A DNA stretch of 64,000 bases from Acidimicrobiales bacterium (GCA_050013835.1 JBEKEM010000003.1:9710-73709), one strand, 5' to 3'; positions 4,653 to 64,000 are shown, counted from the stretch's first letter. The notes: a model not told the origin generated them from the letters alone. Numbers and translations are program-made.

Positions 4653-5468
4653 CTACGCCGCCCGCTCCCCCGCCTCGTCGCGGCAAGGACCGAGGATCGC
4701 CGCCGCGGCCTTCTGGATGCGCCCACACGAGGCCCGGACGGCGACGACTGCCGGTTCCCCCCCGCCAGCCCACGTCGCGACGTAACCGAACGAGTACTCG
4801 CCACTGTCGATCCCGAGCTGGCGGCAGACCACGTAGGCGGTGGACTCGGCCTCGAGCTCGGCGAGCGACCGGTCCTCGAAGCCCGCGTGGAGGAGGGCGT
4901 GGGCGAGCTCGTGGGCGAGGGTCTTCACGCGTTGGACCGGCGTGTTGCGGGCCTCGATCCGGATGCGGTGCTCGTCGTGAGAGCAGTCGCCGTTGACGTT
5001 CCCGGCAAAGGCGTGTTCCTCGACAGAGAAGCCCAGCCTCTGGGCGACCGCGGTGAGCCGCGCGAAGTGGCCCGCCGGGTCGTCGCCGACGAGCCGGCTG
5101 CACACGGACGGCAGCTCCTCGCCCTCGGTCTGGGAGACGTCGAAGACGGGCACGAACTTGAAACCGCGCACGACCCGTTCAGCGTCGTCCTCGGCGTCAC
5201 CGGGCCGCCGGTAGACGAGCGGCGCGAGAATCCAGATCGCCCGCTCCCCCGAACGGACGAAGCGGCCGAGCCTCCGCCAGGCGCGGTAGCCCGCCACCTG
5301 GGTCGCCTCGGGGCACTGCGCAGCGATGAGGAGCACGTTGTTGAAGCTGTAGGAGTGGAACCGGCCCTGGAATTCCAGGTAGCGCCGCCATTCGTCCGAG
5401 GTCGTGAGTCGGGCGATCCCCTCGGCGAGCTGGGTGATGACCTCTGGGTGCCTGTCGTAGGCGGTCAC
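4653..5468 (-). CDS. ArdC-like ssDNA-binding / zinc-metalloprotease domain protein
   Basis: The N-terminal 'YLEFQGRFHSYSFNNVLLIAAQ...AGYRAWRRLGRFVRSGERAI' resembles the ArdC/DUF1738 N-domain. The C-terminus has an HExxH motif, 'LAHELAHALLH'. I set the start at the in-frame GTG at 5468, preceded by GGGACGAAGAA. The upstream part of ORF 4653..5669 looks non-coding. Confidence 0.7.
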   Translation of the reverse strand: MTAYDRHPEVITQLAEGIARLTTSDEWRRYLEFQGRFHSYSFNNVLLIAAQCPEATQVAGYRAWRRLGRFVRSGERAIWILAPLVYRRPGDAEDDAERVVRGFKFVPVFDVSQTEGEELPSVCSRLVGDDPAGHFARLTAVAQRLGFSVEEHAFAGNVNGDCSHDEHRIRIEARNTPVQRVKTLAHELAHALLHAGFEDRSLAELEAESTAYVVCRQLGIDSGEYSFGYVATWAGGGEPAVVAVRASCGRIQKAAAAILGPCRDEAGERAA

Positions 5469-5685
5469 TTCTTCGTCCCTCCGTGTCGAGCCGGTGCGGC
5501 ACACCCCGCGGACGGGGTGAAGCGGCCCGACCGCCCGGTCGCACCCCACCGCCGGAGCGGGGGTCGTGACCGGGCCATCGCGGGTGACGCCGATTCGAGG
5601 ACGCTGGGGAGTTCGACCGATCGACACGCCGGCAGCGACAACCCGGGATTCGTGACGATGCGTAGTCACCGAAGTGAACCGGTCG

Positions 5686-5717
5686 GGGCGTCACCCTAGG
5701 TGCGGCCTGTGACGCCC
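5686..5717 (-). terminator. candidate stem-loop downstream of the 5814..6869 gene
   Basis: A 9-bp inverted repeat, GGGCGTCAC / GTGACGCCC, flanks a 14-nt loop about 100 nt past the stop codon. There is no clear U-tract. Confidence 0.3.
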
Positions 5718-45324: not shown

Positions 45325-45818
45325 GCTCGAGCTCGGCGCACCCGGCACACGGACAGGGCCAGGGGTTCCTGGGCGCCTGATTCCGGTTGGCGCGGGTCCG
45401 TCGTGGGGCGACGGGAGAAAGCGGGCCGTGGTGGCCGCGACCAGCTCGCCTTCCGACCGGGGTCGCCCGCCAGGCCCGCCTCGGACGAAAAACCGCTGCA
45501 ACCACGCCTCACCGCCCAACGACCGCGCCGGGCCCTGCACCCTCGGGGCGGACGCGACCCGTCGCCTTCCTCATCCCGCCCTTCCTCCGGGAGCCAATCG
45601 CTCGAGGCCGGCGACGTTCGGGCGCCGGCGGCGGGAGCGTCGTCGGGGTGCCGTTCCCGCACGTCGAGGAAGTGGACGTGCCGTGAGATGCCGCGGGTGA
45701 TCCACGCCTTGTCTGCCCCGAAGAAGGCCGTTCGCCCCTCCGGGCCACGGGTCGGTCAACGCGGATCAAGGCGACGTCCTCGAGTCGAAGCTGGCGGGCG
45801 ACGGCCGAGCTATATAGG

Positions 45819-45845
45819 GTATGTCCATCGCTTCCATTGACATAC
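45819..45845 (+). promoter_or_regulatory. inverted repeat overlapping a -35-like TTGACA upstream of cysK
   Basis: GTATGTC-N13-GACATAC lies in the only AT-rich patch of the 586-nt fhs-cysK spacer. TTGACA is at 45837-45842, 37 nt before the cysK ATG. Confidence 0.35.
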
Positions 45846-45878
45846 TTCTGAAGGACACGCCCAGGCGGTCGGAAAGGC

Positions 45879-46817
45879 ATGCCCATGGCCATTGCTGACG
45901 ACATCACCCAGCTGATCGGGAACACGCCACTCGTGCGTTTGCGGCGGGTGAGCGAGGGGGCGGCGGCCGAGATCATCGCGAAGCTCGAGTTCTTCAACCC
46001 GGCCCACAGCGTCAAGGACCGGATCGCCGTGTCGATGATCGACGCCGCGGAGCAGGCGGGACTGATCTCGGCGGACACGACGATCGTCGAACCGACGAGC
46101 GGCAACACGGGGATCGCCCTTGCCATGGTGTGCGCGGCGCGCGGCTACCGCTGCATCTTCACGATGCCCGAGACGATGAGCAAGGAGCGCCGCCTGCTGC
46201 TGCTGGGCTACGGGGCCGAACTCGTGCTCACGCCGGGGCCCGAAGGAATGGCGGGTGCCATCGCCAAGGCGAAGGAAATCGCCAGCGGTGAAGGCAAGTT
46301 CTTCGTCCCCCAGCAGTTCGAGAACCCCGCCAACCCGGCCATCCACCGGACGACGACCGCCGAGGAGATCTGGGCCGACACCGAGGGACGCGTCGACATC
46401 TTCGTCGCCGGCGTCGGAACCGGGGGCACGATCACCGGTGTCGGCCAGGTGCTGAAGGAACGGAAGCCCTCCCTCCGTGTCGTTGCCGTCGAGCCGGCGG
46501 CATCCCCCGTGCTGTCCGGCGGAGCAAAGGGCCCCCACCCGATCCAGGGGATCGGGGCTGGATTCGTGCCGGCGGTCCTCGACGTGGACGTGATCGACGA
46601 GATCATCACCGTCGAGAATGACGACGCCTTCACGACCGCGCGCCGGATGGCGCACGAGGAAGGGCTGCTCGTGGGCATCTCCTCAGGAGCCGCGGTCTGG
46701 GCCGCCCTGGAGGTCGCGCACCGGGCGAAGAACGCCGGCAAGCTCATCGTCGTCGTCGTCCCCTCGTTCGGCGAGCGCTACCTGAGCACGAAGCTCTTCG
46801 AGGGACTCGGCGACTGA
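45879..46817 (+). CDS. cysK: cysteine synthase A (O-acetylserine sulfhydrylase)
   Basis: 'IGNTPLVRL', '[14 protein letters not shown]', '[12 protein letters not shown]', '[10 protein letters not shown]', 'GISSGAA'. Confidence 0.92.
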
Positions 46818-46819
46818 CC

Positions 46820-47521
46820 GTGTTGACGGGCGTGCGACAAGACATCGCCTCGGTGCGGCAAAGGGATCCCGCCGCTCACTCGAAGCTCGAGATCGTGCTG
46901 TGCTACCCGGGGCTCCACGCCGTCTGGGGCCACCGACTGAGCCACTGGATGTGGGCCCACAGACTGAAACTGGCCGCCCGGGCGATCTCCGCCTTCGTCT
47001 GCACCTTGACGGGCGTCGACATCCATCCGGCAGCGACGGTCGGCCCGGGGCTGTTCATCGACCACGCCACCGGCGTCGTGATCGGCGAGACGGCCGAGAT
47101 CGGCGCCGACGTGACGATCTATCAGGGGGTCACGCTCGGCGGGACGAGTCTCGAGGCCGTCAAGCGTCACCCGACCGTCGAGGACCGCGTCACGATCGGC
47201 GCCGGGGCGAAGCTGCTCGGGGCGATCACCGTCGGCCACGACAGTCGCATCGGAGCGAACGCCGTCGTCGTGCACGACGTGCCGTCCAACTCCATCGTGG
47301 TCGGAGTGCCAGGACAGGTCATCGCCCGCAGCCGGCCCCACACGGCGGCCTCGCCGCCAGACTTGGACGAGACCCTGCTGCCCGACCTCATCGGTGTGAG
47401 CCTCGCGATGTTGCAGAAACGCGTCAACGAGCTCGAGAAAGTCGTGACCGGCCACGTCTCCGTCGCCCAGCTGCACCGCTCGGCGTCGGGGGTATGGTCC
47501 GGAGACGACTTCTCGATCTGA
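46820..47521 (+). CDS. cysE: serine O-acetyltransferase
   Basis: '[19 protein letters not shown]', hexapeptide repeats '[29 protein letters not shown]'. Confidence 0.9.
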
Positions 47522-47553
47522 GCATCAACAACAGCACCCTCAGGGAGGTCAGC

Positions 47554-47802
47554 TTGTCAGAGTCCGCAGCATCCGCCGCCGACAGGGTGCTCGACTGCGC
47601 TGGAATGTCGTGCCCGCTGCCGGTCCTTAAGACCGCGCAGGCGATCAAGGACCTCGCGCCCGGACAGGTTCTCGAGCTCCTCGCGACGGACCCGGGAGTC
47701 GAACCGGACATGCGGGCATGGACCAGGCGAACGGGCAACGAGCTATTGAGCGTCAGCAAGACAGATGAGGTCTTCCATGTGCTCATCCGCCGGGTGAAAT
47801 GA
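47554..47802 (+). CDS. tusA: TusA/SirA-family sulfurtransferase
   Basis: 'LDCAGMSCPLPVLK' (CPxP motif). TTG at 47554 lies 5 nt after GGGAGG. It is the C-terminal part of ORF 46900..47802. Confidence 0.8.
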   Translation: MSESAASAADRVLDCAGMSCPLPVLKTAQAIKDLAPGQVLELLATDPGVEPDMRAWTRRTGNELLSVSKTDEVFHVLIRRVK

Positions 47803-47811
47803 CCGGGACCG

Positions 47812-48198
47812 ATGACCTGGACTAAAGAGTCGCCCACCAAGATCCTCTACGTGCACACGCACGGGATCGATGACCCCGGGCGCTGCGCGACGCCGTTCTT
47901 CCTCGCGTCGGCCGCGGCGGCGATGGAGTTCGAGGTCATGATCTACTTCACGATGTTCGGGCCGACCCTTTTGCGCCGGGACGTCATCGACAAGATCGGC
48001 CCCAAGGGCGATCGGGGCCAGCCCCTGCGGCACTTCATCGAACAGGCCACCGGTCTCGGTGTCCGCCTGCTCGTCTGCCAGCCGTCACTCGACCTCAACG
48101 ACCTGAGTCTGGATGACCTGATCGACGGGGTCGAGGTGATCGGCGCGGCGACCTTCAACGACCTCGCAGCCGCCGCCGACGCCGTGGTCAGCTTCTAG
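47812..48198 (+). CDS. dsrE: DsrE/DsrF-like sulfur-relay family protein
   Basis: A 128-aa protein, 'KILYVHTHGIDDPGRCATPFFLA...RLLVCQPS'. This matches the size and Cys placement of the DsrE family. Confidence 0.7.
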   Translation: MTWTKESPTKILYVHTHGIDDPGRCATPFFLASAAAAMEFEVMIYFTMFGPTLLRRDVIDKIGPKGDRGQPLRHFIEQATGLGVRLLVCQPSLDLNDLSLDDLIDGVEVIGAATFNDLAAAADAVVSF

Positions 48199-48210
48199 TC
48201 GGCGGCGAAC

Positions 48211-48939
48211 ATGACCACCGTGCCTCGCCAGGAAATCGACGCCCACTACAAGACCTGGAACGTCGCCGGCCACGCGGACGTGCCTCACGAGGTCAAGGTG
48301 CGCCTGTTCGAGCAGGTGAAAGGTGACTTCCGGTTCGGCGACTACCTGCACGGCTGCTATGAGTGCGGCATCTGCGTCGGCGCCTGCCCGTCCGCCAAGT
48401 TCTACGACTTCAGTCCGCGCAGAATCGCGCAGGCGGCTGCGCGCGAGGACGTGGACCTCGTTTACCAGCAGATGCAGGAGGACATCTGGGAGTGCTCGCA
48501 GTGCTTCTCCTGCGTGCGTTGCCCGCGCGGCAACAACCCGGGCGGGATCATCACGATCATGCGGGAGGTGGCGGTGAAAAATGGCCTCGCCTCCGCCAAG
48601 GAAGCCCTTGTCGGCTACTCCCGGATCATCTACAAGATCATGTCCACCGGGACTCAGGTCTCGCCGGACATGCTCGGAAGGGACTCCTTCCCCGACTGGG
48701 GACCGGAGACCGCCGACGTGGCGGACAACCTCGACCTGTGGCGTCGCGCGCTGCCCCCCGAGACCATGCACACCACCTCAACCGGCTGGTCCGTCGCCGA
48801 GAGCACCCTTGTCGAGCTCTACCTCATCTGGATGGAGACCGGAGTTCTCGACATGATCGCCGAGGTCGACCCGGGCCTGCACACGATCCTGCTGGAGCTG
48901 ATGGAGGAACGCCTCGAGGAAGAGGGGATCGAGCCGTGA
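48211..48939 (+). CDS. shdrC1: sulfur-oxidising heterodisulfide reductase-like subunit C1 (2x[4Fe-4S])
   Basis: 'CYECGICVGACP' and 'CSQCFSCVRCP'. Confidence 0.8.
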   Translation: MTTVPRQEIDAHYKTWNVAGHADVPHEVKVRLFEQVKGDFRFGDYLHGCYECGICVGACPSAKFYDFSPRRIAQAAAREDVDLVYQQMQEDIWECSQCFSCVRCPRGNNPGGIITIMREVAVKNGLASAKEALVGYSRIIYKIMSTGTQVSPDMLGRDSFPDWGPETADVADNLDLWRRALPPETMHTTSTGWSVAESTLVELYLIWMETGVLDMIAEVDPGLHTILLELMEERLEEEGIEP

Positions 48940-50180
48940 CGATCCCCTTTGAGGCCCTGCGTCGCACGAGAGCCGCCGATGAACCCGTCACCGACCGGCG
49001 CGCCCTCGACGATCCCCGTGCCGAGCTCCTCGAACTGGAGCGCCGGGGTGAGCTGATCGTGCAGAAGATCGACCGGGAGGCCGTCTCGGTGTCGACGAAG
49101 TACGGACGCGTCAAGCGGATCCAAAAGTCGCACCTGTGGCATCACAAGTCCTGCGGCCAGTGCGGCCACATCCCGGGCTACTCCACCTCGATCTTCTGGG
49201 TGATGCGCAAGCTCGGCTACGACTACCACGACCCGCACGACCAGACCTCGTGCACTGCCTGGAACTACTACGCCAGCGCGACCTCCAACTCGGCGGCTCA
49301 GGCCGCGGTCGCCGTCCGCAACTTCGCGGCCGCCTACGAGACCGGATACTTCCCGCTCATCCACTGCGGCACCTCGTACGGCCACTACAAGGACGTGCGC
49401 GAGGAGCTCATCCGCTACCCCGAGCTCAGAGCCCAGGTCCGCGCCGTCATGGCAAGACTGGGCAAGCCGCTCGTGCTACCAGAGGAGATCGTCCACTACT
49501 CCGAGTGGCTGCACGCCCTGCGCGGCGAGATCGCCGCGCAGCGGGTGCGCGACGTGTCGCAGATCGCGGTCTCCGTCCACCCGGCGTGCCACTACCACAA
49601 GATCGTCCCGGGCGACGCGATCTACGACCCGGACATCTACGGCGGTCAGCGCACCGCCGTGGTGACCGGCCTCGCCGAGGCGCTCGGAGCCACGGTGCGC
49701 GACTACTCGACCTGGTTCGACTGCTGCGGGTTCGGCTTCCGGCACATCCTGGTCCAGCGTGACTTCAGCCGGTCCTTCGCCACACTCCGCAAGATCGAGG
49801 TCATGAAAGAGGAGGCCGACCCCGACGTCGTGCTGACCCACGACACCGGGTGCGTCACCACCCTCGACAAGAGCCAGTTCGCCGCCAGGGCCCACGGACG
49901 CAACGTCGGGCTGCCGGTGCTCAGCGACGCGCAGTTCGCGGCGCTGGCGTTGGGTGCGCACCCCTACCGGGTCTGCCAGCTGCACTGGCACTCCGCTGAC
50001 TACCGACCGCTCCTCGAGAAGATGGGCATCGACTGGGAGAAGGCGTGGGCCGAGTTCCAGAGTGATCTGCGCCGCCTCGAGTCGGGCGAGAAGCGCTATC
50101 TCGACTGGGATGACGCCGACGGCGTCAACGACAGCAACCGGCTCGAGAACTCTCCCGACAGGGACACACAGAACAGTTGA
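48936..50180 (+). CDS. shdrB1: heterodisulfide reductase-like subunit B1 (CCG domains)
   Basis: 'HKSCGQCGH...SCTAWNY' and 'HPACHYH...FDCCGFGFRH...HDTGCV'. GTG at 48936 overlaps the C1 stop. Confidence 0.8.
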   Translation: MTIPFEALRRTRAADEPVTDRRALDDPRAELLELERRGELIVQKIDREAVSVSTKYGRVKRIQKSHLWHHKSCGQCGHIPGYSTSIFWVMRKLGYDYHDPHDQTSCTAWNYYASATSNSAAQAAVAVRNFAAAYETGYFPLIHCGTSYGHYKDVREELIRYPELRAQVRAVMARLGKPLVLPEEIVHYSEWLHALRGEIAAQRVRDVSQIAVSVHPACHYHKIVPGDAIYDPDIYGGQRTAVVTGLAEALGATVRDYSTWFDCCGFGFRHILVQRDFSRSFATLRKIEVMKEEADPDVVLTHDTGCVTTLDKSQFAARAHGRNVGLPVLSDAQFAALALGAHPYRVCQLHWHSADYRPLLEKMGIDWEKAWAEFQSDLRRLESGEKRYLDWDDADGVNDSNRLENSPDRDTQNS

Positions 50181-50188
50181 GGTGACAA

Positions 50189-51259
50189 ATGTCGTCGACC
50201 ACGATCGCCGTCATCGGAGGAGGACCCGGAGGGCTGCGCGCCGCGCAGGGAATCGCCGACCTCGGCCAAGGGGTCGTGCTGGTCGAGAAGCTCGATCACC
50301 TCGGGGGCTCCCCGATCACCCAGAGGTACTACAGGCTGACCCCGCGCGGTGAGCTCGCGCAACCGCAGATGCAGCGGCTGATCGACCTCGTCACCGCCAA
50401 TCCGCTCACCGATGTCCGCTGCCAGACCGAACTCGTCGGCATGACGGGAGAGCCGGGGGCGTTTGCCATCACGCTGCGCGACGCACCGACCGGAAGCACC
50501 GAGACGGTCGAGTGCGGCGCACTCATCGTCGCCACCGGGTTCAGCCACTTCGACCCGGGTCGAGCCACCCAGATGTACGGGTACTTCGAGTTCCCCGACG
50601 TCATCACCCAGCCCGACCTCGAGGCCATGCTGTCCGATCACCGGGTGCTGCGCCCCTCCAACGGCCAGCCGCCAGAGCGGATCTGCTTCGTCCAGTGTGT
50701 CGGCAGCCGCGACCGGCAGATCGGCAACGAGTACTGCTCGAAGGTCTGTTGCGGAGTGGCGTCCAAGGAGGCGACCGAGATCCGGCAGCTTCTTCCGGAC
50801 TCGAAGGTGCTCATCTTCTACATCGACATGCGGACGTACGGCTACTGGGAGAACGAGATCTACTGGCCCGCGCAAGAACAGCACCACGTCCAGTACGTCA
50901 AGGGGCTGATCACCGAGGTCCTGCCAAAGGGTGACCGCCTGCTGGTGCGCGGCGAGGACACGACGATGGGTCGGCCGATGGAGGTGCTCATGGACCTCGT
51001 CGTGCTGTCGGTCGGCATGGAACCGTCACCGGGAACCCGCGAGCTCGCCAGGCTGCTCGGGGTGCGACAGAACAAGTTCGGCTTCATCGACGCCGTGGGT
51101 GCGCCACTCGATCCCGTCACGACCGACCGGGAAGGGGTCTTCGCCTGCGGTGCGGCGCTCGGCCCCGCCGATCTCGAGGACACCGTCTCCTCGGCGGCGG
51201 CGGCGGCCATGAGGGCCGTCGGCTTCCTGCGGTCCCGCGCCGTCGCCAAGGCAAACTGA
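50189..51259 (+). CDS. shdrA: heterodisulfide reductase-like subunit A (FAD, [4Fe-4S])
   Basis: 'IAVIGGGPGGLRAA', 'CFVQCVGSRD...EYCSKVCCG'. Confidence 0.85.
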   Translation: MSSTTIAVIGGGPGGLRAAQGIADLGQGVVLVEKLDHLGGSPITQRYYRLTPRGELAQPQMQRLIDLVTANPLTDVRCQTELVGMTGEPGAFAITLRDAPTGSTETVECGALIVATGFSHFDPGRATQMYGYFEFPDVITQPDLEAMLSDHRVLRPSNGQPPERICFVQCVGSRDRQIGNEYCSKVCCGVASKEATEIRQLLPDSKVLIFYIDMRTYGYWENEIYWPAQEQHHVQYVKGLITEVLPKGDRLLVRGEDTTMGRPMEVLMDLVVLSVGMEPSPGTRELARLLGVRQNKFGFIDAVGAPLDPVTTDREGVFACGAALGPADLEDTVSSAAAAAMRAVGFLRSRAVAKAN

Positions 51260-51260
51260 G

Positions 51261-52025
51261 GTGACGGTTCCCGCGATGGTCGGTCCCGTCGTCGACACGC
51301 TGAGCGCCCAGGAGTTCCAGCGCGAGATCCTGGAGCGGATCAGCGACACAGAGCTGCAGGTCATCGCCCGGGACGTCGAGCGCAAGTCGGCGGCACTGCG
51401 GGAGCTGTGCTCGGGAACCTCGCGCCCGTCGGACCGCGCCACGCTGCGCCAGGAGCTGCGCTGGGTGTTCGCGACCCGGCGGCGCGCCGACAGGATCCTC
51501 GACCTGGCCGGACCGGAGGCCCTCGCCGCGGCCATCGGTGGGCTGCTCGGCGACAGCGATCCGGTGCAGGACAGGCTGGACCGCTTCGTGGCCACATGGG
51601 AGAACCTCGTACCGGAGCCCGCGCCGGGGAGCTGCGGCTTCGAGCTGGCGGCCGAACTGCTGCACTTCATGTCGCCCGACCGGTACTGGTTGTGGACGAG
51701 GTGGATCTGGGATCCGGACACCCGGACCGGTGCACTGGCTCTCGTCACGACCGATGACGTCGACCTCGGCGAGGGGGACACAACAGGGGCGATGTACCTC
51801 ACGGTCGGGCGGGCGACCGCCTTCCTCGAGGAGACCGGCAAGGCGGCGGGTCTCACGACGGCGGGTCCCGGTCTTTTCGGCGTTGACGTCCTACTCGCCT
51901 CCGTCTACGCGGTGTACATGTACACGGTCCTGCGGCTGCGGATGAGCCGAGAGTTCAACCGGGTGATCCCGCCACTGCCCGATCTCGTGCGCCGCCTGCT
52001 CGGCGTCGACGACCGGGAGTCGTAG
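51261..52025 (+). CDS. conserved hypothetical protein in the sHdrH position
   Basis: A 254-aa protein with no cofactor motif. It occupies the position of the 'hyp'/sHdrH gene between hdrA and the next hdrC/B-like gene. Confidence 0.6.
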   Translation: MTVPAMVGPVVDTLSAQEFQREILERISDTELQVIARDVERKSAALRELCSGTSRPSDRATLRQELRWVFATRRRADRILDLAGPEALAAAIGGLLGDSDPVQDRLDRFVATWENLVPEPAPGSCGFELAAELLHFMSPDRYWLWTRWIWDPDTRTGALALVTTDDVDLGEGDTTGAMYLTVGRATAFLEETGKAAGLTTAGPGLFGVDVLLASVYAVYMYTVLRLRMSREFNRVIPPLPDLVRRLLGVDDRES

Positions 52026-52029
52026 AACC

Positions 52030-53337
52030 GTGCCGGTCGGAGGACGCAAGGTCCCGCCCGTTGTCGTCGAGAAGGAGACGGCCACCGTCGCCTCCACCAT
52101 CTCGGGACGCGAGGTCGAGCTCGGGGCGACGTGGAACCGGATGTTCGAGCCACGGGTCCTCACGAACTACGGCCCCGACGGCTTCGTCCCGATCTCGGCG
52201 CTGCCCGGTGGAGAGTCCCTCGAGTGGTGCTTCGGCTGCGGCAAGTGCATCCCGGCCTGCCCCGTCGACATGGTGGGCGACTACGGCCCGCGCAAGCTCC
52301 ATCGCAAGGTCCAGACGGGCACCGATTTGTTCACCGATTCCGACCTGTGGCTCTGCACCGCCTGCGGGAACTGCCTGCGAGTCTGCCCGAAGCGGGTCGA
52401 CATGCTCACGGTCATGCCGGCTGTACGCGAGGTCGCGCTGGCCGCCGGCGCGGTGCCGGCCGAGTTGCAGGACGTCTTCGAGAAGACCTTCCGGCAAGGC
52501 AACGCCCTCGGCCAGAGCCAACGGCGGCGGGCGCAGTGGGCGGACGCCGCCGGGGTCCCGGTCCGGATCCTCGCCAAGGACCCGGCGCCCGTCGACGTCC
52601 TTTTCTACGTGGAGGACTACTGGAGCTTCCACCCCCGCGGCCAGGAGGCGGCGCGCGCCTTCGCGAGAGTCGCGACCGCACTCGGCGTCGATTGGGCGAT
52701 CCTCGGCCCGGAAGAGAAGACGCTCGGCGACTCGCAGCGCCTCGCCGGCGAAAAGGGCCTTTTCGAGGCGCTGGTCGAGGACGCCGCGGCGACGCTGGCG
52801 AACTACGAGTTCAACCGGATCGTGACACCCGACCCACACGCCTTCAACGCGCTCGTCAAGGAGTACCCCGGGCGCGGGCACCGCTACGAGGCGCTCCATT
52901 ACACGCAGCTGCTCGCGCCGCTCGTCGGCCAGATCCGGTGGGAGCGGGAGCTCGATCTCAAGGTGACGTTCCACGACCCGTGCTACCTGGGGAGGCAGAA
53001 CGGCGAGTACGACGCCCCCCGGACGCTTATCGAGGCCATCCCCGGCGTGCAGCTGGTCGAGATGGACCGCTGCCGCCAGAACGGCTACTGCTGCGGTGGC
53101 GGGGGCGGCGGCATGTGGCTCGACGGCTTCACGGGCGACCACACGAGCGAACGGCTGTCCGAGCGCCGGGTCCGCGAGGCGGCCCAGACCGGGGCCGACG
53201 TGCTGGCGGTTTGCTGCCCCTACGAGGTGTCCCGGTTCTCCGACGCCGCCAAGGCGACCGGTCACGACGAGCTCCGGGTCTGCGACGTCATCGAGCTGGT
53301 CGACGAGGCGATGCGGGGCGCAACGGACCATGGCTGA
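52030..53337 (+). CDS. shdrB3: fused HdrC/HdrB-like Fe-S protein (sHdrB3 type)
   Basis: 'CFGCGKCIPACP' and 'CTACGNCLRVCP' come first. One Cys-free CCG-like half follows. The last part is one intact CCG domain, 'HDPCYLGR...YCCGGGGG...AVCCPYE'. Confidence 0.8.
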   Translation: MPVGGRKVPPVVVEKETATVASTISGREVELGATWNRMFEPRVLTNYGPDGFVPISALPGGESLEWCFGCGKCIPACPVDMVGDYGPRKLHRKVQTGTDLFTDSDLWLCTACGNCLRVCPKRVDMLTVMPAVREVALAAGAVPAELQDVFEKTFRQGNALGQSQRRRAQWADAAGVPVRILAKDPAPVDVLFYVEDYWSFHPRGQEAARAFARVATALGVDWAILGPEEKTLGDSQRLAGEKGLFEALVEDAAATLANYEFNRIVTPDPHAFNALVKEYPGRGHRYEALHYTQLLAPLVGQIRWERELDLKVTFHDPCYLGRQNGEYDAPRTLIEAIPGVQLVEMDRCRQNGYCCGGGGGGMWLDGFTGDHTSERLSERRVREAAQTGADVLAVCCPYEVSRFSDAAKATGHDELRVCDVIELVDEAMRGATDHG

Positions 53338-54358
53338 GCCGCTGCGCGTCATCGACTTCGGATCCCGCCCGCCGTTGCGCTCGCAGACGCTGTGGCACGC
53401 CGTCGGTTACGGGGTGTCGGCCGGCGCGCCGGCGACGCTCTCCTTCGTCCGCCCGGCCGTCCCGTACGTCTGTATCGGTTTTCACCGCCCCCTCGACGAG
53501 GTGGACCCCGACTTCTGCCGGGCGGAGGGCCTGCCGGTCCTGCGGCGGATGGTCGGCGGCGGTCCGGTGTACCTGGACTCAGGCCAGCTGCTCTTCCAGA
53601 TTTGCCTGCCCGCCGCCTCGGTGCCGGCGGTCCGGCCCAAGGCCCTGCGCCAGCTGCTCGAACCCGCTGTAGCGGCCTTCCGCGCCGTCGGGGTGCGGGC
53701 CGTGCTCGACGAGGACTCGGAGATCTGCCTCGGCGACGCCAAGATCTGCGGACACGGGGCCGGGCAGATCGGTGACGCCGTCGTCGTCTGCGGCAACCTG
53801 ATCGAGCGCTTCGACCACGCGCGGGCGACGCGGGTGCTCGCGATGACCGATCCGGCCCAGCGGGATCAGACGCTCGCCCTCATGCGCCGCTTCGTGGCCG
53901 CGACCCCGGTCGATCCCGTCAGCTTCCGGGCCGCCATGGTCGCCGCCTACGCCGCCAGGCTCGGGCTCACCGCCCGGCTGGGGGAACTGGACGACGTCGA
54001 GCACGCCGCGCTCACCTCGCTCGACGAGCAATTCGTCAGCAACAACTGGCTGGCCGGACCGGGCCGGCCGGGCCCGCAAGCCGGTCCCGGACCGGTCGCG
54101 CGCCAGGTCAAGGTGCGCGCCAGGATCTGGACGCTTAGCGCGACCCACGAAGGTGCGCAGGTCGCGGCCACCGTGGTTCGAGGAACGGTCCTCGCGGCAC
54201 GACTGCACGACCCCGGACTCAACGGTCTGGCCGTAAGAGCGGAACAGGCCCTCGTCGGGATCCCGCTGCGGTCGGTCGGCGACGTGCTGGCGGGCTTCGG
54301 CGACCCCGGACGAAGGCTGGCGGCCGCCTTCGCCACAGCCGAGCCTGAAAGGTCGTGA
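53330..54358 (+). CDS. lipoate--protein ligase family protein (copy 1)
   Basis: BPL/LplA/LipB-type fold: 'VCIGFHRPLDEV...GLPVLRRMVGGGPVYLD', candidate Lys in 'GDAKICGHGAGQ'. ATG at 53330 inside ORF 53096..54358. Confidence 0.7.
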   Translation: MAEPLRVIDFGSRPPLRSQTLWHAVGYGVSAGAPATLSFVRPAVPYVCIGFHRPLDEVDPDFCRAEGLPVLRRMVGGGPVYLDSGQLLFQICLPAASVPAVRPKALRQLLEPAVAAFRAVGVRAVLDEDSEICLGDAKICGHGAGQIGDAVVVCGNLIERFDHARATRVLAMTDPAQRDQTLALMRRFVAATPVDPVSFRAAMVAAYAARLGLTARLGELDDVEHAALTSLDEQFVSNNWLAGPGRPGPQAGPGPVARQVKVRARIWTLSATHEGAQVAATVVRGTVLAARLHDPGLNGLAVRAEQALVGIPLRSVGDVLAGFGDPGRRLAAAFATAEPERS

Positions 54359-54822
54359 TGGAACCGACGGCGCGCCTTGTCGTGGCCGGCTTCCCGCTCG
54401 CGCTCGACCGCCTCTACCAAGCCGAGACGCACATGTGGGTGCTCCCGACGGGACCCGGCCGGGTGAGAATCGGGATGGACCCGGTCGGCCTCGAGACGAG
54501 CGGCAGCCTCGCCGAGCTGTCCCTTGACCCGGTCGGGACCGAGCTCCACGCGGGCCGGCCGTTCGGCCAGCTCGAAGCGGCCAAGTTCGTTGGCCCGCTC
54601 CTCAGCCCGGTTTCCGGCGCCGTCGTGGAGACGAACGAAGAGGTCGTCGCCGACGCGAGCCTCGCCGTGCGGGACCCGTACGGGGCCGGCTGGCTGATCG
54701 GGGCCAGCCTGGGCGACGCCGATGCCGAACTGTCGGGGCTGCTCGCCGACCCGACCGAGATCACCACCTGGTTCGCCGCCAGGATCGCCCGTTACCGGCA
54801 CGAGGGCGTGATCGCGCAGTGA
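54355..54822 (+). CDS. lbpA: GcvH-like lipoate-binding protein (LbpA)
   Basis: 'FGQLEAAKFVGPLLSPVSGAVVETN...DPYGAGW' follows the H-protein lipoyl-lysine pattern. Confidence 0.75.
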   Translation: MMEPTARLVVAGFPLALDRLYQAETHMWVLPTGPGRVRIGMDPVGLETSGSLAELSLDPVGTELHAGRPFGQLEAAKFVGPLLSPVSGAVVETNEEVVADASLAVRDPYGAGWLIGASLGDADAELSGLLADPTEITTWFAARIARYRHEGVIAQ

Positions 54823-55808
54823 CCGGCGCGCCGACGGTCCCGACCCCCGCCGGGGTGCGACGGGCGAACTTCCCCAACGTGATGGACTTCTACGCGCCCG
54901 GACTCAGACGCTGGCAGACCTCCGAATGGGTCCCGGCCAGTCCCCGCCGGTTCCTTGCCGTGTCGGTGACCGGCTCGGCCTGCGCGCTGCGCTGCGACCA
55001 CTGCCACACGAAGTTGCTCGACGGCATGACGTCGCCCGGCGCGGGCGAGGACCTGTACACGCTGGCGGCACGACTTCACGAGGAGGGCTGCGAGGGCCTG
55101 CTCGTGTCCGGCGGCTCCACCCGCCGCGGCGCCGTCCCGTTGCTGGCGCATCTCGGGCACATCCGACGGATCCGCGAGCAGCTCGGGATGAGGGTCGTCG
55201 TGCACTCGGGCCTCGCCTCCCCCGAGCTCGCGGCCGGGCTCGCGGCCTCCGGCGTCGACGGGGTGATGATCGACGTCATCGGGTCCGACGAGACGCTGCG
55301 CGACGTCTACCACCTCGACTTGACGGTCGAGGACGTGGACCGCACTCTGGGGCTGCTTACCGACAATGGGTTGCGGGTCATCCCGCACATCGTGCTCGGC
55401 TTGCACTTCGGACGTTTTCTCGGCGAGTACCGGGCGCTCGAGATGGTCACCGGTTACCCGGTGTCGACCCTCGTTCTCGTGGTGCTCGTGCCGCTCGCCG
55501 GCACGCCGATGGCGCACGTGGCCCCGCCCCCGCTCGACCGGGTGGCCGGGTTCTTCGCCGCCGCCCGGCTGGCCGCGCCGGATACGACGATCAATCTCGG
55601 CTGCGCCCGTCCGCTCGGCCCCGCCAAGCGCGCGCTTGACGACGCCGCGATCGATCTCGGCCTGAACGGCATCGCCTACCCGGCCGAGGGCGCCATCGAG
55701 TACGCGAGATCGCGCGGCCTCACTGTGCGGCTCGTCGAGTCCTGCTGCTCGCTCACCTGGAGCGGGGTGGACGATCGCGTCCCCGCCACCGTGTCGGTGG
55801 CAAGGTGA
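54819..55808 (+). CDS. radical SAM protein (LipS-type lipoyl synthase candidate)
   Basis: 'GSACALRCDHCHT' contains a CX3CX2C motif. It sits between lbpA and the second ligase. Confidence 0.7.
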   Translation: MTGAPTVPTPAGVRRANFPNVMDFYAPGLRRWQTSEWVPASPRRFLAVSVTGSACALRCDHCHTKLLDGMTSPGAGEDLYTLAARLHEEGCEGLLVSGGSTRRGAVPLLAHLGHIRRIREQLGMRVVVHSGLASPELAAGLAASGVDGVMIDVIGSDETLRDVYHLDLTVEDVDRTLGLLTDNGLRVIPHIVLGLHFGRFLGEYRALEMVTGYPVSTLVLVVLVPLAGTPMAHVAPPPLDRVAGFFAAARLAAPDTTINLGCARPLGPAKRALDDAAIDLGLNGIAYPAEGAIEYARSRGLTVRLVESCCSLTWSGVDDRVPATVSVAR

Positions 55809-56922: not shown

Positions 56923-58008
56923 ATGGTGGTCCGCGAGCGCCCGACGCCGCCTGCCGCCCCGCGGCCGGTCAAGACCAGCCCGGAATACGTGCGCATCTCG
57001 ATGGCGAGCGCGATCACGCTACAGATGTGCTCCGGCCGGTTCAGCCGCGACTTTCCGTTCGGGGGCATCAACCTCCTGCTGAACTACGGGGCCGGGTGCC
57101 GATCCGACTGCGGCTACTGCGGGCTCGCCCGCAGCCGTCCGGGCGACTACGCGGACAAGTCGTTCATCCGGGTGGCGTGGCCGCTGGTACGGACCGACGA
57201 GCTCGTGGCACGCCTCGCGCGGTTCGAACCGGCCCTGACCCGCCTGTGCATCTCCATGGTCACTAACGGTCGCGCCTACCGCGACACCTGCGAGATCGCG
57301 CGTCGGATCACCGAACGAGTCCGGACGCCGACATCGGTGCTCGTCGCACCGCCGAACATCACGCGTGCGCGGCTGGAGAACCTGCGTTCGATAGGCGTCG
57401 GGATGATCGGCGTCGGGCTCGACGCGGTCACGGAGGATCTGTTCCGGGCGGCCCGCACCGACGTCCCGGCCGGCGGTCTCAGGTGGGATAAGTACTGGGA
57501 GGTCATCGGCGACGCGCGCGAGATCTTCGGACCGTGGAACGTCAACGTCCACACCCTCGTCGGCTTGGGTGAGACCGACAAGGATCTGCTCACCTTGTTC
57601 GTCAAGCTCCGCGACCGGCAGATCTCGACGTACCTGTTCTGCTTCAACCCGGAGCCCGACTCCCGGATGGCCGCCCGACCGCAACCGTCACTCCGTCGCT
57701 GGCATCGGGTGCAGCTCGCCAGGCACCTGATCGAGACGGTCGGCTACGGACTGGATCGCTTCGATTTCGATGCCGCCGGCGGGATCGCCCGTGTCGACGC
57801 CGACCGGCCCTTCCTCGAGGCCGTCGTCGACGACGGCGCCGCCTTCATGACCAACGGCTGTCCGGGTGACGACGGAGGACCCGGGTGCACCCGGCCCTAC
57901 GGCTCCTACCGGCCGACCGAGCCGTTCCGCGACTACCCGTTCGCGCCCTCAGCCGGCGATCTCGCGGAGATCCGCCGGCAGCTGCGGCTGGGCGATCTCA
58001 GCGAATGA
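56923..58008 (+). CDS. radical SAM protein (biotin/lipoyl-synthase-like, LipS-type candidate)
   Basis: 'GAGCRSDCGYCGL' contains a CX3CX2C motif. The C-terminus has a Cys-containing segment, 'NGCPGDDGGPGCTRPYG'. Confidence 0.7.
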   Translation: MVVRERPTPPAAPRPVKTSPEYVRISMASAITLQMCSGRFSRDFPFGGINLLLNYGAGCRSDCGYCGLARSRPGDYADKSFIRVAWPLVRTDELVARLARFEPALTRLCISMVTNGRAYRDTCEIARRITERVRTPTSVLVAPPNITRARLENLRSIGVGMIGVGLDAVTEDLFRAARTDVPAGGLRWDKYWEVIGDAREIFGPWNVNVHTLVGLGETDKDLLTLFVKLRDRQISTYLFCFNPEPDSRMAARPQPSLRRWHRVQLARHLIETVGYGLDRFDFDAAGGIARVDADRPFLEAVVDDGAAFMTNGCPGDDGGPGCTRPYGSYRPTEPFRDYPFAPSAGDLAEIRRQLRLGDLSE

Positions 58009-58029: not shown

Positions 58030-58818
58030 GTGCGAATCGTCGTGGCCCTGAAGACGGTTCCCGATCTCGTCGAGGAGATCGAGCTCACCGCCGACGAGAC
58101 CGCCATCGAGCGCGAGTACCTGAAGTTCGCGCTCAGCGAGTGGGACGCCCAGGCTCTCGAGGAGGCACTGCTCCTCAAGGACACCAGCGGGGCCGAGGTC
58201 GTGGCCGTCGGCCTAGCCGACGACCCCGAGATCGACCAGACCCTCTACACGGCGCTCGCCAAGGGGGCGGACGCGGCGGTCAAGCTCACCGACGCGGGCG
58301 CCGCTTCCCGCGAGCCGGCGGCGATCCCGGTCGCCGCCCGGGCCGCGCTGCTGGCGGGATACCTCGCCTCCGAACCGGCCGACCTCGTGATCTCCGGCGT
58401 GCAGGCGGCGGACGACCCGGACGGGCAGCTTCCGCCGACGCTCGCCGCACTGCTTGACCTGCCCCACGTCTCGGTGGTCGTAGCCGTCGAAGCATCCGCC
58501 GGCTCGGTCACCGTGCGCCAGGAGTTCGCCGGGGGCGTGTCCCACGAACTCGAGGTGCACCTGCCCGCCGTGATCGGTGTCCAGTCCGCCCGGCAGACCC
58601 CCCGCTACGCGCCGATCGCGCGGATCCGCCAGGCGATGCAGGCCGGTGGACTCACCGAGCTGGCGGTGACGTCCCCGGGTCCGGAAGAAGGCGTCGTCCT
58701 GCGCCGGATGCACCGACCCGAGACGACCGGTCGGGCCGAGATGCTGACGGGCAGCCCCGGAGAAGTCGCCGACCAGATCGTGGAACTGCTTCGTGACCGT
58801 GGCCTCGTGAAAGGGTGA
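58030..58818 (+). CDS. etfB: electron transfer flavoprotein beta subunit
   Basis: 'MRIVVALKTVPD...LSEWDAQALEEAL'. 262 aa. Its end overlaps etfA. Confidence 0.85.
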   Translation: MRIVVALKTVPDLVEEIELTADETAIEREYLKFALSEWDAQALEEALLLKDTSGAEVVAVGLADDPEIDQTLYTALAKGADAAVKLTDAGAASREPAAIPVAARAALLAGYLASEPADLVISGVQAADDPDGQLPPTLAALLDLPHVSVVVAVEASAGSVTVRQEFAGGVSHELEVHLPAVIGVQSARQTPRYAPIARIRQAMQAGGLTELAVTSPGPEEGVVLRRMHRPETTGRAEMLTGSPGEVADQIVELLRDRGLVKG

Positions 58819-59792
58819 GTGTCGCCGTGAGCCGCAATGTGATGGTGCTCGCCGAGCACACGACAACGGAGATTTCCGAGGGAACCTACGAGCTGATCGG
58901 CAAGGCGCGCGAGCTCGCCGAGGCGCTCGGGGGCCTGACCGAGGTGGTCCTTTTCGGCCCGTCCGAGCTCGCCGGCCGGCTCGGAGGCGCCGATGTCGTC
59001 GTCTGTATGGAACACCCGGCCCTGGCGGAGTACCAGCCGGAGGCCTACGAGCGGGCGCTCATGGAGGTGCTGTCACAACGATCCCCGCGGCTGTTGCTGA
59101 TGTCCAATGCCACCGTCGGCTTGGACCTCGGGGCTGCGCTCGTCGTGCGCTGGCACGCGCCGTTGGCCGCCTACGTCAACGCCCTGGGGATCCGTGACGG
59201 CACCGTGACGGCGACGGCGAAGATCCTCGGCGGGAAGGTGCTCGCCGACCTCGAGCTGCCCGGGGACCGCGCGATCGCCACCGTCCTCGGAGGCGCCTTC
59301 ACCGCGGAAACAGGCCTGTCCCCCGCCACCGAGGTCGTCGTTCTCGCCCCGCCGGCCGGACTCGACACGCTGCGGATGTCGCTTCGCCGGGTCATCGCGG
59401 CAGAAGCCGGTGACGTCGACATCACGACGGCCGACATGCTCGTCTCCGTCGGCCGCGGGATCGAGTCAGCGGACAACCTGGAGATCGTGACGGAGCTCGC
59501 CGACGCGCTCGGCGTGCCTCTCTCGGCGTCCCGACCGGTGGTCGACGCCGGATGGCTGCCGAAGACGCGCCAGGTGGGTCAGTCGGGCCTGAAGGTGAAG
59601 CCCCGCGTGTACCTGGCCCTCGGCATCTCGGGAGCCCCCGAGCACCTGGAGGGGATGCGGAATGCCGAGCTGATCCTCGCCTGCAACACGGACCCCGGCG
59701 CGCCGATCTTCGATGTCGCCCACTACGGGACGACGGTCGATCTGTTCGATCTCGTCCCCGAGCTCGTCAGCCGGGTGCGCGCCTTGCCATGA
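58815..59792 (+). CDS. etfA: electron transfer flavoprotein alpha subunit
   Basis: 'VSVGRGI', 'QVGQSGLKVKPRVYLALGISGAPEHLEGM', 'NTDPGAPIF'. Confidence 0.85.
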   Translation: MSVAVSRNVMVLAEHTTTEISEGTYELIGKARELAEALGGLTEVVLFGPSELAGRLGGADVVVCMEHPALAEYQPEAYERALMEVLSQRSPRLLLMSNATVGLDLGAALVVRWHAPLAAYVNALGIRDGTVTATAKILGGKVLADLELPGDRAIATVLGGAFTAETGLSPATEVVVLAPPAGLDTLRMSLRRVIAAEAGDVDITTADMLVSVGRGIESADNLEIVTELADALGVPLSASRPVVDAGWLPKTRQVGQSGLKVKPRVYLALGISGAPEHLEGMRNAELILACNTDPGAPIFDVAHYGTTVDLFDLVPELVSRVRALP

Positions 59793-62501: not shown

Positions 62502-62684
62502 GGGCGGGCCCAGGGCCGGCCCACGGCCCCCGTGACCGCCGCGGATCCGGCAATCCCGGGCCGACGCGAACAAACTACAGTTCGTCTATCGCATCTAGGA
62601 CATTGCTGCACTAAACAACGAGAGGGCGCCTTGGCCGCGGCTTTCCGGCCCCGGGCCGATGACACCCAGTCAGGGGAGAACGAC

Positions 62685-63215: not shown

Positions 63216-63289
63216 ACCGGCACTCCGACGAAGGAAACCCGGCGATCCGAGCAGGCGAATGTCCACTGTCGCTACTACACTGAATCAGT

Positions 63290-63295
63290 TACAAT
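63290..63295 (+). promoter_or_regulatory. candidate -10 hexamer (TACAAT) for the encapsulin transcript
   Basis: TACAAT lies in an AT-rich patch 290 nt upstream of the encapsulin ATG. The -35 element is weak. Confidence 0.3.
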
Positions 63296-63585
63296 AGTGG
63301 AGAATGGCTGTACAACAGGGGCGCCCTGGTCGGTGGGTCACGGGGGTTGGAATCAGCCAATCCGGGCGACGACCGGGTCACCTTGGCGCCGGATGTCACG
63401 CCCGCCCCGGCGGACGGGTGCCGACGCCGGCAGAGATGGCGTTCGACCCGGAGGATCGTTGGCAATGCGGCGCACACCATTGCGGACCTCGCGCCAGATG
63501 ACTCCTCCGGCGCGTGACGGCTTCCACACGACTCACGACCTCCCGGTCAGCACACCGGGGCAGTCCCCGAGGGAAAGGTCCGGCA

Positions 63586-64000
63586 ATGCCCAGATCAGCG
63601 ACAAGTAGCACGCCGACGAATCTCGCCCTGAGCGATACCGCGGCACGTCAACTCGCGAATGTCTCGAAGAGCACCGCGCAGCTCGACACCATCACACCGC
63701 GATGGCTGATCAAGATGCTGCAGTGGGTGCCGGTCGAGGCCGGAAGCTACCGGCTGAACCGCGTCAAGGACTCGGGGGTCACCACCGTCGCCACGTCGGC
63801 GCGGGATGGAGCCGAGCTGCCGACGACACACCTCGGCTACTACGAGACACCTCGTGAGTACTTCCTCGACACGGTGGCCACCGTCCTCGACGTCCCCACC
63901 CGGATCTCTGACCTGTACGGCAGCCCGTTCGACCAGATCGCCGAGCAGGTCCGGCTCACGGTCGAGACGGTGAAGGAGCGCCAGGAGACCGAACTACTCA
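63586..64000 (+). CDS. family 2 encapsulin nanocompartment shell protein, N-terminal fragment (runs off 3' edge)
   Basis: This ORF is absent from the supplied track because it has no stop inside the window. My translation reads 'MPRSATSSTPTNLALSDTAARQLANVSKSTAQLDTITPRWLIKMLQWVPVEAGSYRLNRV...YYETPREYFLDTVATVLDVPTRISDLYGSPFDQIAEQVRLTVETVKERQETELL'. That matches the conserved N-arm pattern of family 2 (SrpI-type) encapsulins as I remember it. GAGGGAAAGG precedes the ATG. Confidence 0.8.
   Translation, partial: MPRSATSSTPTNLALSDTAARQLANVSKSTAQLDTITPRWLIKMLQWVPVEAGSYRLNRVKDSGVTTVATSARDGAELPTTHLGYYETPREYFLDTVATVLDVPTRISDLYGSPFDQIAEQVRLTVETVKERQETELL

Follow-up and report, generated by a model that had tools for sequence, protein, structure and literature searches.

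A type II sHdr-LbpA cluster joined to a cysteine-synthesis gene pair in a single clade of Acidimicrobiales from peat and soil

Why should the two genes for cysteine synthesis stand at the head of a sulfur-oxidation gene cluster? The question is raised by a 64,000-nucleotide (nt) stretch of DNA from an Acidimicrobiales bacterium (GCA_050013835.1, JBEKEM010000003.1:9710-73709), referred to as the window in this study, in which cysK and cysE are followed on the same strand by tusA, dsrE and the genes of a type II sHdr system (positions 45,879 to 53,337). CysE converts serine and acetyl-CoA to O-acetylserine, and CysK combines O-acetylserine with sulfide to yield cysteine. How the cytoplasmic sHdr complex receives its sulfur is a standing question, and the type II systems of Actinobacteria, Chloroflexota and Firmicutes are the least understood in this respect. 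An earlier interpretation of this locus (the sequence-only reading) had proposed either a coordinated partitioning of reduced sulfur between cysteine formation and oxidation, or an entry of the substrate as cysteine or a cysteine persulfide. The explanation that we consider probable is that, within one peat- and soil-dwelling clade of Acidimicrobiales, a type II sHdr-LbpA cluster was joined head-to-tail to an ordinary cysK-cysE pair, and that co-expression there would serve both supply and buffering.

The distribution of the cysE-tusA join was surveyed using an alignment of sHdrB1 homologues, which gave 80 loci (one genome per GTDB species) with 10-kb flanks onto which the window proteins were mapped; 72 of these loci have enough upstream sequence for the linkage to be judged. 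At this species level, cysE lies directly upstream of tusA in four of the 72 loci (L001, L005, L006 and L007, with the contigs of L005 and L007 ending inside cysE), and it does not in the remaining 68. In a neighbor-joining tree of C1+B1+A+H+B3, the four group with the window and L002 as a single clade, and the sister lineages L004 and L012 are unfused. The contig of L002 is too short for its linkage to be judged, and that of L003, a relative of L004 and L012, is cut as well. All of these are metagenome-assembled genomes of Acidimicrobiales from bogs, fens and soils. Look-ups among metagenomes and contigs added the fused loci L081, L084, L085, L091 and L169, bringing the total to about ten, and same-strand adjacency is kept across them despite a CysE identity down to 64% and different upstream neighbors. 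As the same cysE-tusA junction recurs in independent NCBI, ENA and JGI assemblies, it is not an assembly artefact. The genes located 5′ of cysK differ among the five fully visible fused loci (the window, L001, L006, L081 and L169); conserved synteny therefore begins at the cysK upstream region.

The join of cysK-cysE to tusA is a synapomorphy of one clade. The view that promoter-proximal cysK and cysE genes are unusual is borne out by the 68 evaluable loci that lack them, and no paper describing sHdr clusters with cysK or with encapsulins was found in the literature searched. The conservation of the linkage in relatives, which had been proposed as a check, is real but confined to this clade and not general in type II sHdr loci. 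Because almost all loci have no cysK-cysE pair, neither the coordinated partitioning nor the entry through cysteine or its persulfide can be a general property of type II sHdr systems.

A separate observation concerns L084, a 2.3-kb metagenome contig. Compared with window positions 46634-48930, it is 100% identical from cysE across the spacer to ~100 nt into tusA, and its identity drops to 63-90% inside tusA. Either sHdr alleles have recombined here, or two co-occurring strains were assembled into one chimeric contig. The contig was considered as a recombination breakpoint at the cysE-tusA junction and was rejected as such, since the break is actually within tusA.

In nine fused loci (the window plus eight others), the gap between cysE and tusA is only 18-33 nt. 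Its sole content is a GGAGG-type ribosome-binding site, followed by a GTG or TTG start codon. The unfused sister loci retain long promoter-bearing regions upstream of tusA. The predicted fold of the junction is no more stable than that of shuffled sequence (z = −0.91), and a consensus scan of the + strand between 45200 and 64000 found no terminator-like sites between genes. No promoter-like (sigma-70-like) sites were detected in the same region, by a consensus scan that is weak for a high-GC actinobacterium. Co-transcription across the cysE-tusA junction is likely, because the gap is so short, holds a ribosome-binding site alone and carries no terminator.

The region upstream of cysK differs between fused and stand-alone loci. 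An AT-rich element of ~50 nt can be aligned in the window, L001, L081, L006 and L091, and is also present in L169; an nhmmer profile of this element matched fused loci only when the window and 163 loci were searched. Stand-alone relatives (L082, L083, L087, L092, L094 and L170) carry a different motif, CCCGATAnnTTnGGTCGG (CCCGATA(C/G)(G/A)TT(G/A)GGTCGG), located ~50-80 nt 5′ of cysK. This motif is absent from all fused loci and is probably the native cysK regulatory site. As the fused loci have their own upstream element and the stand-alone pairs a different motif, regulation appears to have changed along with the fusion. Local alignment revealed no match of the AT-rich element to the dsrE2, encapsulin or other intergenic regions of the window, and when 64 tusA upstream regions were scanned with a weight matrix, the sisters L004 and L012 did not stand out, the top scores coming from AT-rich genomes. 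A search for riboswitches and other known RNAs between 43000 and 64000 (Rfam, E up to 1) returned one chance miRNA match only, and the 586-nt gap between fhs and cysK gave no clear third-position GC signal of a hidden gene.

These observations bear on one alternative, namely that the adjacency is functionally meaningless. According to this explanation, an sHdr island came to lie beside a housekeeping cysK-cysE pair, is transcribed from a separate promoter in the 3′ part of cysE, and has been kept there by inheritance. CysK and CysE are indistinguishable from stand-alone orthologues, the layout is limited to one clade, short junctions are seldom broken by chance, and the C-terminal third of CysE, which is poorly conserved, could tolerate an embedded promoter. 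Even so, we regard a neutral adjacency as unlikely. The junctions of nine loci have been trimmed to a ribosome-binding site, whereas the unfused sisters keep long promoter regions; in front of cysK, an element peculiar to the fused loci has taken the place of the former upstream region, pointing to a regulatory change tied to the fusion; and the scan, weak as it is for a high-GC actinobacterium, found no sigma-70-like site between 45200 and 54500.

What kind of enzymes, then, are encoded by the fused pair? CysK scores 478.1 bits on the equivalog model TIGR01139 (cutoff 350.95) and falls under the cutoffs of both CysM models (TIGR01138, 301.2 versus 394.2; NF008735, 304.8 versus 413); CysE scores 239.6 bits on the equivalog model TIGR01172 (cutoff 210.65). 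The CysK translation holds the sequences ...HSVKDR... and ...EPTSGNTG..., in which HSVKDR and TSGNTG mark the lysine that binds pyridoxal phosphate (PLP) and the substrate loop, respectively. A tail, ...GVWxGxDFSI, is kept in all CysE orthologues, fused and stand-alone, and by its sequence this ...DFSI ending is of the type that docks into CysK to form the cysteine synthase complex. Stand-alone CysK homologues at 83-85% identity (L082, L083 and L170) belong to pairs that have the same 310- and 233-amino-acid (aa) genes, likewise 2 nt apart, and next to which lie unrelated genes in convergent orientation. Among 80 metagenome loci fetched with CysE, nearly all have the cysK-cysE pair, and tusA comes next in only three. 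No alignment column contains a residue diagnostic of fused CysK relative to its stand-alone orthologues, and only 3 of 233 columns, all at trivial positions, separate fused from stand-alone CysE. Within the 64-kb window, the search for a second cysK or cysE yielded only a 30%-identical PLP enzyme in the purine-catabolism cluster.

In a neighbor-joining tree of CysK+CysE, the fused pairs are interleaved with stand-alone pairs and show no long branches. Because of this interleaving, and by every sequence test applied, the fused cysK-cysE is an ordinary actinobacterial pair and not a specialized paralogue. This leaves little room for the idea, for which the sequence-only reading had proposed a phylogenetic check, that CysK is a CysM- or SrpG-like enzyme using thiosulfate or persulfide instead of sulfide. 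Such a specialization would fit the genomic context, with sulfur-oxidation genes and an SrpI-like encapsulin nearby, and context is all that speaks for it. We consider it very improbable in view of the CysK and CysM scores given above, the absence of any residue separating fused from stand-alone CysK, and the conserved CysE tail for complex formation.

By its gene content and order, the sHdr part of the locus is a textbook type II cluster of a kind already published. Type II systems are defined by a single syntenic cluster that unites shdrC1, B1, A, H and B3 with etfAB, and sHdrB3 has been described as a C2/B2 fusion carrying one noncubane site (PMC11094781). Most of them have been reported from Chloroflexota, Actinobacteriota and Bacillota, where TusA and DsrE3A usually accompany them, and the type II sHdr-LbpA cluster shdrC1B1AHB3-etfAB-emo has been described (Cao 2018, Justice 2014 and Kumpel 2024, as cited in PMC11094781). 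The window has this domain content and this order, which is common to the 80 loci retrieved with sHdrB1. Its predicted sHdrB3 consists of an HdrC-like ferredoxin dicluster and a single CCG stretch, as expected of the fusion, and an emo-type protein with Fer4 and CCG domains and three hydrophobic segments follows etfBA. The arrangement recognized in the sequence-only reading, with a fused HdrC/B protein, etfBA and a membrane iron-sulfur (Fe-S) protein further on, thus agrees with the literature definition.

Some unfused actinobacterial sHdr loci (L008-L014) show features of their own. Approximately 100-300 nt 5′ of tusA, they share a conserved promoter or operator, CTGGACAAAC ... ATAAGCATATGTGCAA ... 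GAATATGT, and they also have a small, divergent, cysteine-rich gene (MTINDLRCDFCG...) that may regulate type II sHdr clusters.

The distal end of the locus adds a third module. Contigs identical to the window (L164 and L165) extend beyond its end and reveal a full 313-aa shell gene, a 580-aa Aminotran_5 cysteine desulfurase and then the N-terminus of an Rrf2 protein (the encapsulin stretch covers 11520-14328 in L164 and 10966-14202 in L166, and the desulfurase is 572-580 aa long across contigs). An SrpI-like shell gene followed directly by the gene of a cysteine desulfurase with a long N-terminal extension is the mark of family 2A desulfurase-encapsulin loci, to which the window would belong. 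The same distal arrangement, Rrf2 gene included, is found in the L081/L166 genome; the L169/L167 population (two pieces overlapping at 99.98% identity) has it without the Rrf2 gene. On a contig that is closest to the unfused L004 lineage, dsrE2 is present but the encapsulin pair is missing. In nine metagenome loci, the encapsulin-desulfurase pair adjoins a stand-alone cysK-cysE, usually divergent from cysK, and in L089 the order is encapsulin, desulfurase, cysK, cysE. Because this pair is distal to the sHdr genes here and often beside stand-alone cysK-cysE elsewhere, the sHdr block of the fused clade sits inside a cysteine-synthesis and sulfur-storage neighborhood. The sequence-only reading had missed this distal pair, a recurrent neighbor of cysK-cysE in relatives.

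Two upstream regions in this part of the window are conserved. In the gap between the second lbpA and dsrE2 (62560-62620, + strand), an AT-rich element, AACTACAGTTCGTCTATCGCATCTAGGACA, is shared by the window, L166 and L167. As this conserved element precedes dsrE2, it suggests that dsrE2 has its own promoter, outside the long cysK-to-lbpA transcript. Also well conserved is a region of ~300 nt from a promoter-like sequence, CTACTACACTGAATCAGTTACAATAGTGGAGAATG, to the encapsulin start (63262-63585 on the + strand; L166, 10652-10965; L167, 10727-11045). Its predicted stems show some compensatory changes, across three diverged loci only, and it has no Rfam match; a structured leader of a new type is conceivable, as is a small open reading frame (ORF).

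With the desulfurase in place, cysteine may be viewed as a dedicated entry point: CysK would fix sulfide, the encapsulin desulfurase would turn cysteine into protein-bound or stored sulfane sulfur, and TusA and DsrE would pass it to sHdr-LbpA, all in one pathway. A relay from a cysteine desulfurase through TusA to DsrE-family proteins is established in E. coli (IscS-TusA-TusBCD), at least three populations have all three modules in a single locus and in the same direction, and an Rrf2 regulator gene lies downstream of the desulfurase gene. Moreover, desulfurase-encapsulin operons often carry a serine acetyltransferase gene, and their compartments store elemental sulfur (PMC10836720). This explanation is nevertheless quite unlikely, for several reasons: 68 of the 72 type II sHdr loci do without a neighboring cysK-cysE; the encapsulin pair is missing beside dsrE2 in a lineage close to L004; each of dsrE2 and the encapsulin gene is preceded by a conserved element of its own, with gaps of 183 and 370 nt, and the two are probably transcribed as separate units; each sulfur atom would cost one acetyl-CoA and one serine, a high price for an energy-yielding flux; and the published desulfurase encapsulins respond to sulfur starvation, not to sulfur excess (PMC10836720).

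A more elaborate version assigns all three modules to a single sulfur pathway, in which CysE and CysK fix sulfide, the desulfurase deposits zero-valent sulfur in the encapsulin, and TusA, DsrE and DsrE2 deliver it to sHdr-LbpA, with coordination by Rrf2 and the AT-rich element. We rate this version as distinctly improbable. If it were true, the encapsulin would be the cytoplasmic counterpart of the sulfur globule for an sHdr-type oxidizer.

We return to a single clade-specific fusion followed by co-expression, and the following sequence of events is envisaged. A complete sHdr-LbpA block would have been placed behind cysK-cysE and ahead of the encapsulin pair, inside a pre-existing cysteine-synthesis and sulfur-storage neighborhood. 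The tusA promoter would have been lost and a new element installed upstream of cysK, such that tusA, dsrE and the shdr genes through the second lbpA would be transcribed from a promoter before cysK. Cysteine would then be made when reduced sulfur floods the cytoplasm; it could supply the pathway's numerous Fe-S proteins and persulfide carriers, and free sulfide would be captured at the same time. CysK would not act as a special substrate-entry enzyme. The layout itself, with the cysteine pair ahead of the sHdr cluster and the encapsulin behind it, was found in no paper, and the functional coupling is what we infer from it.

Several observations weigh against this explanation. The order cysE followed by encapsulin occurs in no sampled stand-alone locus, the encapsulin gene being either divergent from or upstream of cysK, so that insertion alone does not account for the layout and a further rearrangement has to be assumed. 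The new upstream element resembles neither the cysK motif of stand-alone pairs nor the sHdr promoters of the sister lineages, and a promoter may be present within the 3′ end of cysE. In the CysK+CysE tree, which was built by neighbor-joining only, the fused pairs are split between two groups, and this implies loss, transfer or tree error. Finally, a junction of ~30 nt is a tiny target for rearrangement, and adjacency after one fusion is expected to persist without selection.

The features of the locus are collected in Table 1. The nine + strand genes from cysK to shdrB3 reported previously were all recovered as ORFs, and Pfam and NCBIfam matches back their names except for that of the family-less H-position gene. 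The junctions between them, when re-measured, were exactly as given before (2, 32, 9 and 12 nt, a 4-nt overlap, then 8, 1 and 4 nt). The ORF beginning at 45879 exists, but the second ATG, at 45885, is the likelier cysK start because most CysK homologues are 310 aa long. From cysK to emo, all junctions are 32 nt or shorter, or overlapping, and the gaps then widen to 112 nt (emo to the second lbpA), 183 nt (second lbpA to dsrE2) and 370 nt (dsrE2 to encapsulin).

Table 1. Predicted features of the cysK-sHdr-encapsulin locus, in window coordinates
Feature	Position	Strand	Remarks
AT-rich element upstream of cysK	45807..45856	+	probable −10 box plus operator or 5′ leader; dyad GTATGTC-N13-GACATAC
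cysK, O-acetylserine sulfhydrylase A, 310 aa	45885..46817	+	TIGR01139, PF00291; alternative ATG 45879
cysE, serine O-acetyltransferase, 233 aa	46820..47521	+	TIGR01172; C-terminal tail ...DFSI
cysE-tusA spacer, 32 nt	47522..47553	+	sole content a GGAGG ribosome-binding site
tusA sulfur carrier, 82 aa, TTG start	47554..47802	+	PF01206, 80.6 bits; heads the sHdr block in 57 unfused loci
dsrE-type sulfurtransferase, 128 aa	47812..48198	+	PF02635, PF13686; DsrE3A position of published type II clusters; syntenic in nearly all 80 loci
shdrC1, 242 aa, two [4Fe-4S] motifs	48211..48939	+	Fer4 dicluster domains, HdrC-like NCBIfam matches
shdrB1, 414 aa	48936..50180	+	CCG domain, HdrB-like match; 68-92% identity to homologues in many phyla
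shdrA flavoprotein, 356 aa	50189..51259	+	Pyr_redox_2, HdrA-like matches
shdrH-position gene, 254 aa	51261..52025	+	no Pfam/NCBIfam match; homologue in same slot in most of 80 loci
shdrB3, fused HdrC/HdrB-like, 435 aa	52030..53337	+	Fer4 dicluster residues 64-123, one CCG stretch 312-397
LplA-like lipoate-protein ligase domain protein, 342 aa	53330..54358	+	PF21948; gene call on identical contig L164 agrees
lbpA, lipoate-binding GcvH-like	54358..54822	+	PF01597
radical SAM protein, LipS-type lipoyl synthase position	54819..55808	+	PF04055
sLpl-type lipoate-protein ligase, 368 aa	55805..56911	+	PF21948, 117.9 bits
second radical SAM protein, LipS-type position	56923..58008	+	PF04055
etfB	58030..58818	+	PF01012
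etfA	58842..59792	+	PF01012, PF00766; start per gene call on L164
emo-type Fe-S/CCG protein, 721 aa	59789..61954	+	CCG and Fer4 domains; three hydrophobic 19-mers at residues 82-200 (N-terminal)
second lbpA, 144 aa	62067..62501	+	PF01597, 120.5 bits
dsrE2-type protein, 176 aa	62685..63215	+	PF13686, 158 bits; own promoter-like upstream element
family 2A (SrpI-like) encapsulin shell gene, N-terminal 415 nt, cut by window end	63586..64000	+	PF19307, 74.8 bits

Upstream of cysK, the 586-nt gap is preceded by fhs and then by a purine-catabolism and molybdoenzyme region. The part of the window from 1 to 43300 is devoted to purine and pyrimidine catabolism and to the molybdenum cofactor. It carries genes for three xanthine-dehydrogenase-family enzymes with XdhC, three OTCase-like proteins, a carbamate kinase, two PLP enzymes, amidohydrolases, an adenine deaminase and a nucleobase permease, as well as MobA/MoaC/MoeA, a fused ModBC with ModA, and a PadR regulator. 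Positions 4653-5690 hold an ArdC/IrrE-like gene. The whole window has a G+C content of ~70%. No compositional sign of a foreign island was seen, the GC and third-position GC of the cysK-cysE and sHdr genes being not sharply different from those of their flanks.

The fused clade may be regarded as a natural experiment, in which the sulfur-carrier and oxidation genes would have lost their promoter region and lie between cysteine synthesis and a desulfurase compartment of a kind known to store elemental sulfur. If the link is functional, it joins assimilatory cysteine metabolism, sulfur storage in a protein shell and dissimilatory oxidation in abundant peatland bacteria, and the sulfur stores of encapsulins gain a downstream use. 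If the juxtaposition arose by chance and was inherited, the locus is still a clear example of operon fusion, and the conserved genes on both sides could serve as homology arms for the exchange of sHdr islands.

Three known systems can be compared with this locus. The first is the actinobacterial cysK-cysE bicistron, the cysK1-cysE type of mycobacteria. As in related stand-alone contigs, the window has a 310-aa CysK, a 2-nt junction and a 233-aa CysE with the ...DFSI tail; unlike those, it has tusA within 32 nt instead of a convergent gene, and a different conserved upstream element precedes the pair. The second is the published type II sHdr-LbpA cluster. The core order tusA-dsrE-shdrC1B1AHB3, the lipoate-ligase, lbpA and radical-SAM genes, etfBA and emo are the same, and the accessory TusA and DsrE3-type carriers as well as the actinobacterial host match; the window differs in adding two cysteine-biosynthesis genes before tusA, through an operon-type junction, and a desulfurase-encapsulin pair with an Rrf2 gene after dsrE2. 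The third comprises the family 2A operons, such as those for SrpI of Synechococcus and Mmp1 of mycobacteria and that of Acinetobacter (PMC8049743, PMC11659603 and PMC10836720). They share with the window the order of a shell gene and then a long desulfurase gene, with a serine acetyltransferase gene nearby. However, in the window a complete sHdr cluster separates the acetyltransferase and cysK genes from the shell gene by 16 kb, and no rhodanese was seen in the locus, TusA and DsrE proteins taking the sulfur-carrier role.

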